Source: Candidatus Epulonipiscium fishelsonii (GTDB taxonomy: Bacteria > Bacillota > Clostridia > Lachnospirales > Cellulosilyticaceae). Taken from it: 64,000 bases of DNA. Under the pieces are notes generated by a model that saw only the letters and a program-made list of their open reading frames with translations, did no database searches and was not told the DNA's origin. Made by a program: the position numbers and the translations under genes. Positions within the stretch are counted from its first letter, which is position 1, and each line of letters opens with the position of its first letter. Shown piece by piece: positions 19,378 through 22,140 of this stretch. Where the stretch lies: contig LJDB01000010.1 in assembly GCA_001983455.1 (NCBI GenBank), forward strand, positions 11,399-75,398, written 5' to 3'.

Positions 19378-19460
19378 ATATGGATAGGTAACCATTTGAA
19401 ATTATCTCCAGGTTTTCCCCCCATCAGAACCGTACATGAGACTTTCATCTCATACGGCTC
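19378..19460 (-). ncRNA. Group II intron domains V and VI
   Basis: GAGCCGUAUGAGAUGAAAGUCUCAUGUACGGUUC is a 34-nt domain V with the AGC triad and a GAAA tetraloop. AUGGGGGG pairs with CCU(A)UCCAU to give domain VI with a bulged branch-point A. Confidence 0.9.
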
Positions 19461-19481
19461 GCCAACAATAATATTAACTAT

Positions 19482-21333
19482 TTATATAGTATTAATTTCT
19501 AAGCTTTCCCTAAGTTTATTGATTTTTATAATTTGTTTGTTATCTAAGTTAAGCGTTTCCATATATTCTTTAATAGTATCAATATGTGTAGCATATAGTA
19601 ATTTATGAACATTTGTTGTTACCCACATAAGATTGCTGCACTCATTTCCTCCACCTTTAATACGAGGTTTGATATGATGGCATTCCATCATATGTTTATT
19701 AAGTGGTTCTTGCGTTATAGCACATTTCCCACGTTGCCCATAAATGAGTGCTAATTTGTTGTTCAGTAAATCTACACTGTCATCCCACTTGTTACGCATT
19801 ATGAATGTAATTAAGTGGTCATAACCTTTTATACTATTGTGTGTGTATTGTCTACCATTAGGTGTGTAATTACACATATTTTGGTTAAATACTTTCACTC
19901 TTGCATATCTTACCCCGTGAACAGGGAAAAGGGTTACTGATGCAACAGTTCTAATCTTACTATGATACTTTCCGTATATGGCTAAATATGCTTTACTTTT
20001 ATTAGGTTTATTACTTAGATGATTTCTCAATCTTATATCAAAGGATTTCATAACGACATGGTTAATTTCTGCCATATCCCTAGAAACTAGACTAGGGTAG
20101 CTGATTTGTAATATTGATGTACACCTAAAATCATTGAATTAAGTTTTTGCATCTGTTTTGGTGTAGTATCTTTTTGTACCTCTTTAATTTGATTTTTGAG
20201 GTCACAAATTACATTTTTCTTAGCCTTATCTGTCATTTGAGTTCTACATGTGTATTTACGATTTTTTGATTTACCACTATCACTGTATGCTTTAAGTTTG
20301 AAACCTAGAAATTCACTATGTTTCTTTCTTAAGTTTGTGATTTATCTTGACAGAGTTCTAGGTGCAATCTCTTATGCAACCAATTAGTAGTTCGTTTGTA
20401 AACGATACTTGCTGTTTTATGGTCTTTACAAAAGATTTTAAAGTCATCTGCATATCGTACTATCCACATTTCTTTCACTTCGGAATAATTCCTGAGTGAT
20501 GCATATTTGTTTGACTGGTCTATTCTACCATCTTCTCTAACTTGCTTGTAGTCATAATCGGTTTTAAAAGTCTCCCATTGGTCACTTACCCACCAATCCA
20601 ACTCATTAAGCACTACATTAGACAATAATGGAGAGATAATACCTCCTTGTAGTGTACCTTTTGTTTGTATACCTACTCCAACAACTTCACTTTTAAGAAT
20701 TTTGCTAATAACTGTAATTAGGTTCTTATCTTGTATGCCCAGATTCCATAGTTGTTTAAGCAACTTTCCATGATTAATGTTGTCAAAGAAATCTTTAATG
20801 TCTATATCCACAACATAATGTAGTTTGCTTAAATTGACTAATGATTGGCATCTAGCTAGTGCATGGCTAGTTCCTCTGTTAGGACGAAAACCATAGCTAT
20901 GTGGGTGAAATTGTGCCTCAAGTATAGGTTCGATAACTTGCTTAATACATTGTTGTACGATTCTATCTTGTACGCATGGTATTCCTAGCGGTCTATTCTT
21001 ACCATTTGATTTAGGTATCTCAACTCTCCTCACCTTTTTAGGTCTGTAATCTCTAATAAGAGATCTTATAAATTTCACAAATCTGTCGGTCGGGAAATTG
21101 TCATAATATTTCAAAGTGACTTTATCCACTCCACATGTTTCGCTTCCTTTATTTCCTTTTAGGTTACGGTAAGCAAGTAGGATATTTCTTTCATCTTCGA
21201 TATATTTTATTAAATCGTTGAATTTGAATCCCTTTTTTGCTTTAGTGTACAATTCGTCAAATATGCTTTGCATTTCGTAGTACTCATTATTCCTTATCAA
21301 TTGTCTCTTTAGGGTTTGCCTATTCAAAGTCAA
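19482..21333 (-). pseudogene. Intron-encoded RT / maturase (domain X) / HNH protein, disrupted by two frameshifts
   Basis: Frame A 21333-20329 holds the RT domains (YADD) and a TTG start. Frame B ~20340-20087 reads TNLRKKHSEFLGFKL...GVHQYYKSATLV*. Frame C 20075-19482 holds the rest of X plus HNH (CHHIKPRIKGG...NLMWVTTNVH). Confidence 0.7.
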
Positions 21334-21811
21334 TCTACCTCCTTATACAGGATTGAGATTTCTTTTAGTCAATACGAGAACCTTTGATATATAATACTTT
21401 ATTAATATAAACATTTTTCTTAGTTAAATATTACTGTCTAAGGACTATCCCTCCACTTACATTACATAAGTATCTTTCTTAATGCGTCACTATTAAGACT
21501 TTCGGTACTGTGTCCTCGCTCAAATTGGATTAAGATGATTTCATTCTATTATAAGAACTTATACATCATATACCTTTATATCGATTACAGTTTATCTTGG
21601 TATATCCAATCTTTCCACGTTCCATTAGAACTATCTGTTCATATAGGGTTAGGTCTTGCCTATGAGCCTGTTAGCTTGATAGCACCTATAATGCTATAAG
21701 GTTTTTCATAACGGAGAGTTTTACTAAACCTCACTAACCATACTTGGTTGTATCCCTTTGCATTTCTACAAAGTCTTCGTCTAGACTCGTACATTCAGCA
21801 ATTCGCCAGTT

Positions 21812-21856
21812 GCTTATTCGTGATAACGGATTTAGTCACGTTGTTTCTAAATCTGT
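21812..21856. repeat. Copy of the dispersed hairpin element inside the intron 5' region
   Basis: GCTTATTCGTGATA + ACGGATTTAG / TCACGTTGTTT / CTAAATCTGT. The first 23 nt are 22/23 identical to 40358-40380. Confidence 0.85.
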
Positions 21857-22140
21857 TATTTGCAACATTCTAACCATACCTATTTTATAGACTTCCAGCC
21901 TATCATATGCAACCACGGACTAGATGATTTTTCGTTTATTACTTAATTTACGGCATATTTTAGCTGTCTTCACCGAGCTTCAGACCCTTTCATTCAACTG
22001 TGAATTACTTTCGCCTGTCGGAGTATTAAAGGGAGCATTTCCGAGCGTTACTTCTTCATTCTACTCTCTCGTTCTAACAGTTGTAAACTCTTTTAACGAC
22101 TGAGTTTACAGGTATCTTTTCAATACCTAACGTGTCGCAC

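Follow-up and report, generated by a model that had tools for sequence, protein, structure and literature searches.

An rpoC gene split by a group II intron at a catalytic aspartate codon in an Epulopiscium-type giant gut bacterium

Introduction

How can a bacterium use an rpoC gene that is interrupted inside the codon of a catalytic residue? The question is raised by a 64-kb stretch of DNA (hereafter the window; contig LJDB01000010.1, assembly GCA_001983455.1) from an Epulopiscium-type giant gut bacterium, in which rpoC, encoding the β′ subunit of RNA polymerase, is interrupted by a 2763-nucleotide (nt) group II intron at positions 19378-22140. The insertion lies after the first base of the third aspartate codon (Asp456) of the catalytic Mg-binding motif NADFDGDQM. 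Most bacterial group II introns are found outside housekeeping genes (PMC4424553), which they are thought to avoid because defects in splicing would be costly (PMC4424553, PMC6003770). Where group II introns in housekeeping genes have been noted, it is mainly in cyanobacteria and in the CL and ML lineages (PMC4424553).

Here we describe the boundaries of the rpoC insertion, its relatives at the same site, the RNA and protein that it encodes, and the selection acting on the gene around it. We conclude, with a probability of roughly 0.85, that the element is a genuine group II intron of the IIB type that is spliced to make β′. Coordinates are those of the window, and rpoC, the intron and all of their parts lie on the minus strand.

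Results

The locus is the canonical rplKAJL-rpoB-rpoC operon, with the L10 (rplJ) leader, rplJ, rplL, rpoB and rpoC in this order. Exon 1 of rpoC (22141-23506, 1366 nt) starts with Met1 and breaks off at 22141, one base into the Asp456 codon, with ...AAT GCA GAT TTT GAT GGC G (...NADFDG + G). The intron begins at 22140 with GTGCGAC (the bases that follow exon 1 are GTGCGACACG) and ends at 19378 with ...CCTATCCATAT (also given as ...TTACCTATCCATAT); as RNA it extends from 5′ GUGCGAC to 3′ ...CCUAUCCAUAU. Exon 2 (17189-19377) opens with AT CAA ATG GCA GTG CAC, completing Asp-Gln-Met, and continues to the stop codon. The predicted spliced junction, 22141/19377, reads ...GATGGCG|ATCAAATGG....

When the exons were joined (23506..22141 + 19377..17189) they formed a single frame of 3555 nt with zero internal stops, encoding a β′ of 1184 amino acids with NADFDGDQM at residue 450. 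This product was 98% identical over 100% of its length to the uninterrupted 1187-amino-acid β′ of Candidatus Epulonipiscium fishelsonii, followed by matches from Niameybacter, Cellulosilyticaceae and other Epulopiscium. Exact-protein look-ups with the rpoB product, the exon 1 open reading frame (ORF) and L10 of the window returned no identical protein on record. An initial annotation of this DNA, made from its letters, had placed a group II intron inside NADFDGDQM, with these exon and intron ends and with the frame restored on joining. The bases at 22141, 22140 and 19377 are as it claimed, and the observation of an intron within rpoC is confirmed by Rfam, by an empty site, by the in-frame ORF and by a same-site homologue in another genus.

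The empty site was found in a syntenic contig of E. fishelsonii (L019; GCA_001983475.1) that is 92-95% identical to the window in DNA sequence. Its rpoC reads GAT GGA G|AC CAA ATG without any insert at the same point, so that the insertion is exact to the base. Occupied sites were found in two further settings. Through an exact-protein match of an ABC-transporter ORF of the window we reached contig LJHH01000040.1 of Epulopiscium sp. SCG-C06WGA-EpuloA1 (L105; GCA_001983515.1), which carries the same rpoC intron and is 99.56% identical to window 15083-23722 (8.6 kb); a further copy of the intron, 98% identical, came from SRR4102183 (L020). The second setting is a metagenome contig from ENA (L021) that belongs to another genus of the Cellulosilyticaceae: its β′ is 83% identical in amino acids to that of the window and ~90% identical to those of a Cellulosilyticaceae metagenome-assembled genome and Niameybacter, and rpsL-rpsG-fusA-tuf lie downstream of its rpoC. 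There a homologous intron of 2735 nt, 12% diverged from the window intron, sits in the same phase, GAT GGT G|GTGCGAC...CACTAT|AC CAG ATG (3′ flank ACCAGATG). Its intron-encoded protein (IEP) is intact (604 amino acids, TIGR04416 at 340.7 bits), and the intron has a second genomic copy (L022, L023) beside the 3′ part of fliD, where the 3′ flank encodes the FliD C-terminus. This second copy is a sign that the L021 intron is active. L022 itself is a chimeric assembly join across the repeat, with rpoC exon 1, the intron and the fliD 3′ flank. The orthologues against which the initial annotation had wanted its claim measured thus exist in both forms, an intron-less allele (L019) and insertions at the same codon (L105, L021).

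Since another genus has a homologue at this very position, the lineage is one that homes to DFDGD-coding DNA. It is a small lineage specialised on that site. A codon-degenerate junction pattern (NADFDG + G + GTGYG) had no rpoC match in 185,579 species-representative GTDB genomes, 241 million JGI metagenome records or IMG/VR; the matches obtained (8, 10 and 0, respectively) included none in rpoC and none with an intron. Only two clusters among 5.8 billion protein clusters were >60% identical to the window IEP. The small-cluster member P0243 pointed to contigs that proved unrelated and was dropped.

Both ends of the intron matched Rfam models far above the gathering scores. RF02004 (group II D1-D4-5) identified the conserved 5′ part of domain I at 21884-22085 with 139.6 bits (gathering score 34.5), and RF00029 (domains V/VI) gave 69.2 bits at 19378-19462 (gathering score 40); with Rfam, exactly one group II intron was found in the window. 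Domain V (19427-19460, GAGCCGUAUGAGAUGAAAGUCUCAUGUACGGUUC) contains the AGC triad and a 2-nt bulge. Domain VI (19378-19424) contains a bulged branch-point A at 19385, the eighth nucleotide from the intron 3′ end and part of a family-invariant CCUAUC, and the intron ends in AU. The position of domain V, the bulged A and the terminal AU had been read correctly from the sequence in the initial annotation. For comparison, 80 related introns were collected from IMG/VR, and 33 non-redundant ones with both flanks were extracted; the GUGCG...AU termini of the window intron conform to the GUGYG/AY termini present in all 33.

Among the columns conserved in the family, the ribozyme deviates at 9 of 171 on the 5′ side and at 2 of 51 on the 3′ side. 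The corresponding figures for the active sister intron L021 are 9 of 171 and 3 of 51, and most of the deviations are common to both. Between these two introns the ribozyme is 88% identical and the ORF 76%, with compensatory changes in the basal helices of both domain V and domain VI as well as in a 5′ hairpin of domain I. The ribozyme is under strong constraint, and is as conserved as that of the active sister intron.

One part of the RNA is peculiar to Epulopiscium. The loop of a small hairpin in domain I carries a 40-nt insertion (21823-21862, intron 279-318) that is restricted to the Epulopiscium intron copy, none of the 32 related introns having it. The insertion is one member of a family of short, dispersed palindromic repeats. 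The repeat core AAATCCGTTATCACG has 7 matches with ≤2 mismatches, against 0.06 expected, at 21823-21862, 14100-14114, 14142-14156, 14342-14356, 33990-34004, 35402-35416 and 40358-40408.

Exon-binding sites (EBS) were mapped by scanning the alignment of the 33 introns, which occupy different targets, for columns that pair with each intron's own exons, the intron-binding sites (IBS). The EBS1 columns paired with exon −6..−1 in 91% of cells, perfectly in 21 of 33 introns, and the EBS2 columns with exon −11..−7 in 85% of cells, perfectly in 20 of 33. A single EBS3 column (intron 479) paired with the 3′-exon base +1 in 33/33 introns, whether this base was A (16 introns), C (11) or U (6). In the window intron EBS1 is the hairpin-loop sequence CUCCGU (21711-21716, intron 425-430) of the d arm of domain I; it makes 5 of 6 pairs with IBS1 AUGGCG (22141-22146, exon −6..−1), the one mismatch falling on the third Gly codon base (−2). 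EBS2, CGAAG (21775-21779, intron 362-366), is unpaired in the consensus fold and makes 5 of 5 pairs, two of them G-U, with IBS2 UUUUG (22147-22151, exon −11..−7). EBS3 is U at 21662, and pairs with IBS3, the A at 19377 that is the first base of exon 2. None of the three EBS elements is paired in the RNAalifold consensus for the d arm, an arm framed by a tetraloop-receptor-like UAUGG/CCUAAC pair. Because EBS3 is remote from EBS1 the intron is of the IIB type, in which the 3′ exon is read through a coordination-loop nucleotide (EBS3-IBS3) and not by a δ-δ′ pair adjacent to EBS1.

The target read by the RNA, 5′-YUUYG AUGGNG|A, is the coding sequence of D-F-D-G-D. At its own site the L021 intron makes 5 of 5 Watson-Crick pairs through EBS2 and 5 of 6 pairs through EBS1, and the empty E. 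fishelsonii site (CUUUG AUGGAG|A) would pair perfectly (6/6 + 5/5 + 1). Exon position −2 (window 22142; L021 position 886) is an EBS1-mismatching pyrimidine in both occupied alleles, and in the empty E. fishelsonii allele it is the pairing A; position 2 is also where EBS1 mismatches are commonest among the related introns. A different EBS1, UGCCGU at 21950-21955, had been proposed in the initial annotation and must be abandoned: it lies within a paired D1 stem of the Rfam consensus and has no exon-pairing signal across the relatives. Early candidates from a two-sequence comparison (intron 179-184, 210-216, 313-319 and 457-463) were likewise dropped, as the signal in the 33-intron scan lay elsewhere; 313-319 falls in the Epulopiscium-only repeat insertion.

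The IEP, of the reverse transcriptase (RT)-maturase-HNH kind, occupies 19482-21333, starts at a TTG codon preceded by the Shine-Dalgarno sequence AAGGAGG, and is split over three frames: 21333-20329 (RT motifs, 334 amino acids), ~20341-20087, and 20075-19482 (the rest of the maturase (X) domain and the DNA-binding/endonuclease (D/En) region). The initial annotation had overlooked that the ORF is broken. The first frameshift (20333-20334) is a deletion of 7 nt, as measured against L105 and L020, that falls just downstream of RT motif 7 and just upstream of the X domain; the second (20086-20095) is a tandem duplication of 5 nt (CTAGT CTAGT in coding-strand letters), which neither L105 nor L020 has. 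The 8.6 kb compared with L105 contain no other indels. Moreover, 8 of 195 residues that are invariant in 12 intact relatives are altered in the window IEP, including G181D in RT3, P228L in RT4 and H582Y in HNH. The closest intact IEPs, 53-58% identical, come from Clostridium, Paraclostridium, Priestia and Sarcina. From the IIB RNA, the HNH En domain, and the Firmicutes hosts and nearest relatives, the IEP is probably of class B, with CL also possible; a PDB sequence search with the IEP did not discriminate its class. Reports of class B are confined to Firmicutes (PMC4424553).

The three near-identical Epulopiscium copies thus differ in their ORF. It is uninterrupted in L105 (597 amino acids; its GenBank entry, ONI47746.1, names a group II intron RT/maturase), frameshifted in the window, and affected by other lesions in L020 (deletions of 115 nt and 49 nt). 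Over the long term the IEP has been under strong purifying selection, with a ratio of nonsynonymous to synonymous divergence (dN/dS, ω) of 0.03 against L021, where dS is saturated; between the window and L020 ω is 0.165, a recent relaxation. An intact RT-X-D-En frame with catalytic motifs, the mark of an autonomous retroelement, is present in L021 and not in the window copy. We regard the window IEP, as judged from these lesions, as a pseudogene and the intron as no longer autonomous; because of the two frameshifts and the substitutions at family-invariant residues it should be immobile.

The uninterrupted frame in L105, which is 99.56% identical to the window, would suit an alternative in which the intron is spliced but remains an active mobile element, its IEP still functional in the population and the frameshifts being errors or rare variants of the window assembly. 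We consider this unlikely, although it is the best of the alternatives. G181D and P228L are common to all Epulopiscium copies, L105 included; the deletions in L020 are independent of the window lesions; at least four of the seven IEP substitutions between the window and L105 alter the amino acid, as read from the translations; ω has risen from 0.03 to 0.165; and the indels are not of the homopolymer type.

The exons have a different record. Against E. fishelsonii (L019) the rpoC exons gave dS 0.41 and dN 0.014 (ω 0.035), and rpoB gave ω 0.045 with dS ~0.4. Against L105 there are 2 substitutions in the 3.55 kb of exons, compared with 7 substitutions and 2 indels in the 1.85-kb IEP. These rates argue that both exons are under strong constraint. 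Unspliced, the exon 1 ORF (22127-23506) runs into the intron and terminates after GATR, and the first ATG of exon 2 starts MAVH, without the third Asp and with no Shine-Dalgarno sequence upstream; for these reasons the unspliced message cannot give an active enzyme. We strongly infer that rpoC is essential and splicing-dependent. The initial annotation had asserted as much outright; the operon context, the ω of 0.035 and the split Asp codon bear it out, as a reading of the sequence and not as a demonstration.

Constraint on the exons also bears on whether the interrupted rpoC might be a dead or minority allele, with the cell relying on an intron-less rpoC on other chromosome copies or at a second locus, and splicing unneeded. 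The polyploidy documented in Epulopiscium, with tens of thousands of chromosome copies per cell (PMC10756260), leaves room for such an arrangement, as do the decay of the IEP in the window allele and a view limited to 64 kb. It is nevertheless improbable, since the locus is the canonical rpoB-rpoC operon, the exons are free of stops and frameshifts over their whole length at an ω of 0.035, substitutions and indels relative to L105 are concentrated in the IEP, the ribozyme is conserved as in the active sister intron, and three independent data sets, covering two genera, were each assembled with the interrupted arrangement as the consensus.

It is less probable still that β′ is made as two polypeptides from the unspliced message, in the manner of the cyanobacterial rpoC1/rpoC2 split: split β′ subunits can assemble in other systems, but here it is the third catalytic Asp whose codon is broken, so that neither fragment has a complete Mg-binding triad, and translation of exon 2 from MAVH would lack both that Asp and a Shine-Dalgarno sequence. 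As for a mobile intron misjoined into rpoC during assembly, repeated introns do produce chimeric joins, as in L022, but with both junctions base-exact and restoring the frame and a conserved motif, the identical structure in the independent assembly L105, and a target that pairs with EBS1, EBS2 and EBS3 as retrohoming predicts, this explanation can be all but dismissed.

Other features of the window

Intergenic tandem-repeat arrays at 14096-14552, with periods of 39-42 nt, contain the repeat core AAATCCGTTATCACG and fall in a ~1.3-kb stretch (13640-14940) that is missing from L019. A further ~6.2 kb (5584-11818), absent at the syntenic point of L019, encode a PTS EIIA protein, a GH38 α-mannosidase-like protein and two ORFs (373 and 581 amino acids) without a Pfam match. 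Three tandem paralogous ORFs of ~447 amino acids, glycosyltransferase-like (PF13524), lie at 31798-35947 (minus strand) and adjoin cytidylyltransferase/HAD and MptE(Maf)-like genes; the region may be a flagellin or surface glycosylation cluster. Within the ORF at 57893-60892 (minus strand), which encodes a 999-amino-acid DUF6240 protein, in-frame tandem repeats with periods of 15, 27, 57 and 99 nt occupy 59789-60045.

Discussion

Taken together, the exact boundaries, the conserved ribozyme, the exon pairings and the constraint on both exons suggest that rpoC of the window is expressed through splicing of a IIB intron. Several points weigh against this reading. The maturase (X) domain is out of frame in the window allele, and for splicing in vivo a IIB intron as a rule requires a maturase. 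Errors of the assembly consensus are a conceivable source of the two frameshifts, although as 7-nt and 5-nt events, and the only indels in 8.6 kb compared with L105, they do not resemble homopolymer slips. Each of the two occupied alleles has a mismatch between EBS1 and IBS1 at −2. Splicing itself is deduced from sequence. Finally, the view is that of the 64-kb window, and a second rpoC or a mixture of chromosomes with and without the intron may exist in so highly polyploid a cell.

A mechanism can be proposed from the parts described. An intron of the DFDGD-homing lineage would have retrohomed into rpoC, its target being read by EBS2, EBS1 and EBS3. The pre-mRNA would then be spliced by the ribozyme via branching at A19385, which would restore the GAT codon of the third catalytic Asp and yield the 1184-amino-acid β′. 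Because the X domain of the window allele is out of frame, maturase activity must come from elsewhere, and we infer its source from the possibilities at hand: the ribozyme may splice alone, or be assisted by a maturase in trans (from another genome copy with an L105-like allele, or from another intron) or by host factors. The extreme polyploidy of Epulopiscium (PMC10756260) makes either trans-complementation or heteroplasmy between chromosome copies plausible.

These considerations lead to a broader and more tentative proposal, to which we give distinctly less credence than to splicing itself. The intron may have become fixed in the catalytic codon of an essential rpoC in a giant polyploid bacterium and be on the path taken by organellar introns, with the RT/maturase lost, the ribozyme kept by selection on the host gene, and splicing sustained by trans-complementation or host factors. 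If true, it would represent a living bacterial intermediate between a selfish retroelement and a domesticated, splicing-only intron. Maturase decay of this kind is otherwise seen mainly in organelles, and the system is suited to asking how an intron in an essential gene survives once the splicing factor that it encoded is lost, and whether this loss is buffered by polyploidy. The codons that the intron interrupts belong to the most highly conserved cluster of the transcription machinery. In at least two genera the making of RNA polymerase would itself require a ribozyme, and if the rpoC of the window is the sole copy, failure of splicing would be lethal. Because the DFDGD-coding target is nearly universal, the lineage can home between species, and a close relative has a perfect unoccupied site.

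The element is already in public data through the annotation of the L105 IEP as ONI47746.1. No protein is on record for either rpoC exon in that contig (2047-4400 and 6194-8460), though the IEP between them is annotated; automatic annotation appears to miss the split rpoC or to treat it as broken. A split rpoC that goes uncalled can distort completeness and marker-gene analyses. No report of a bacterial rpoC intron came to light in the searchable literature, where only papers on chloroplast rpoC1 surfaced, and for introns in Epulopiscium/Epulonipiscium it yielded only a table listing two group II introns in Ca. E. viviparus.

Comparison with known systems

The mechanism is ordinary for a group II intron; what is unusual is the location in a catalytic Mg-binding motif, the recurrence in two genera and the decay of the maturase in progress. 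The intron resembles Firmicutes IIB introns with En-containing IEPs (class B or CL) in its GUGCG...AY ends, domains V and VI, EBS1/2/3 and an RT-X-D-HNH protein in domain IV. It departs from the typical members of that group in residing at a catalytic codon of an essential housekeeping gene, not in mobile or intergenic DNA, and in its degenerate IEP. Housekeeping-gene examples reportedly include the recA intron of Geobacillus kaustophilus and the dnaN and ribonucleotide reductase introns of Trichodesmium. With bacterial introns of that kind it would share a conserved host gene, a requirement for efficient splicing and homing to a highly conserved coding sequence, but gene and site are both different.

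Bacterial introns seldom lack an ORF or have a degenerate IEP, and those that do are almost always accompanied by a related IEP with a possible role in trans (PMC4424553). Examples are C.te.I1 of Clostridium tetani and the cyanobacterial ORF-less introns that are spliced in trans (PMC4424553). The window intron is like these in having lost its own maturase, for which the known solutions are trans-acting IEPs or self-splicing. To our knowledge, none of those cases is in an essential core gene.

Inteins and homing-endonuclease introns in catalytic motifs offer a further parallel, since an ultra-conserved target provides homing sites across species and makes imprecise loss lethal; unlike them, the rpoC element would rely on RNA splicing and retrohoming, and not on protein splicing or DNA-endonuclease homing. 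The rpoC element also resembles the splicing-only introns of organelles, and the rpoC1 intron of land-plant chloroplasts, with which it has in common a β′-type gene, a polyploid genome and an IEP lost or degenerating while the ribozyme is kept. The chloroplast rpoC1 intron lies at a different site and has no ORF, whereas the window intron is on a free bacterial chromosome and retains IEP remnants of nearly full length. Unlike that of organellar introns, its IEP decay is very recent, with an uninterrupted-frame allele still to be found at 99.6% identity.

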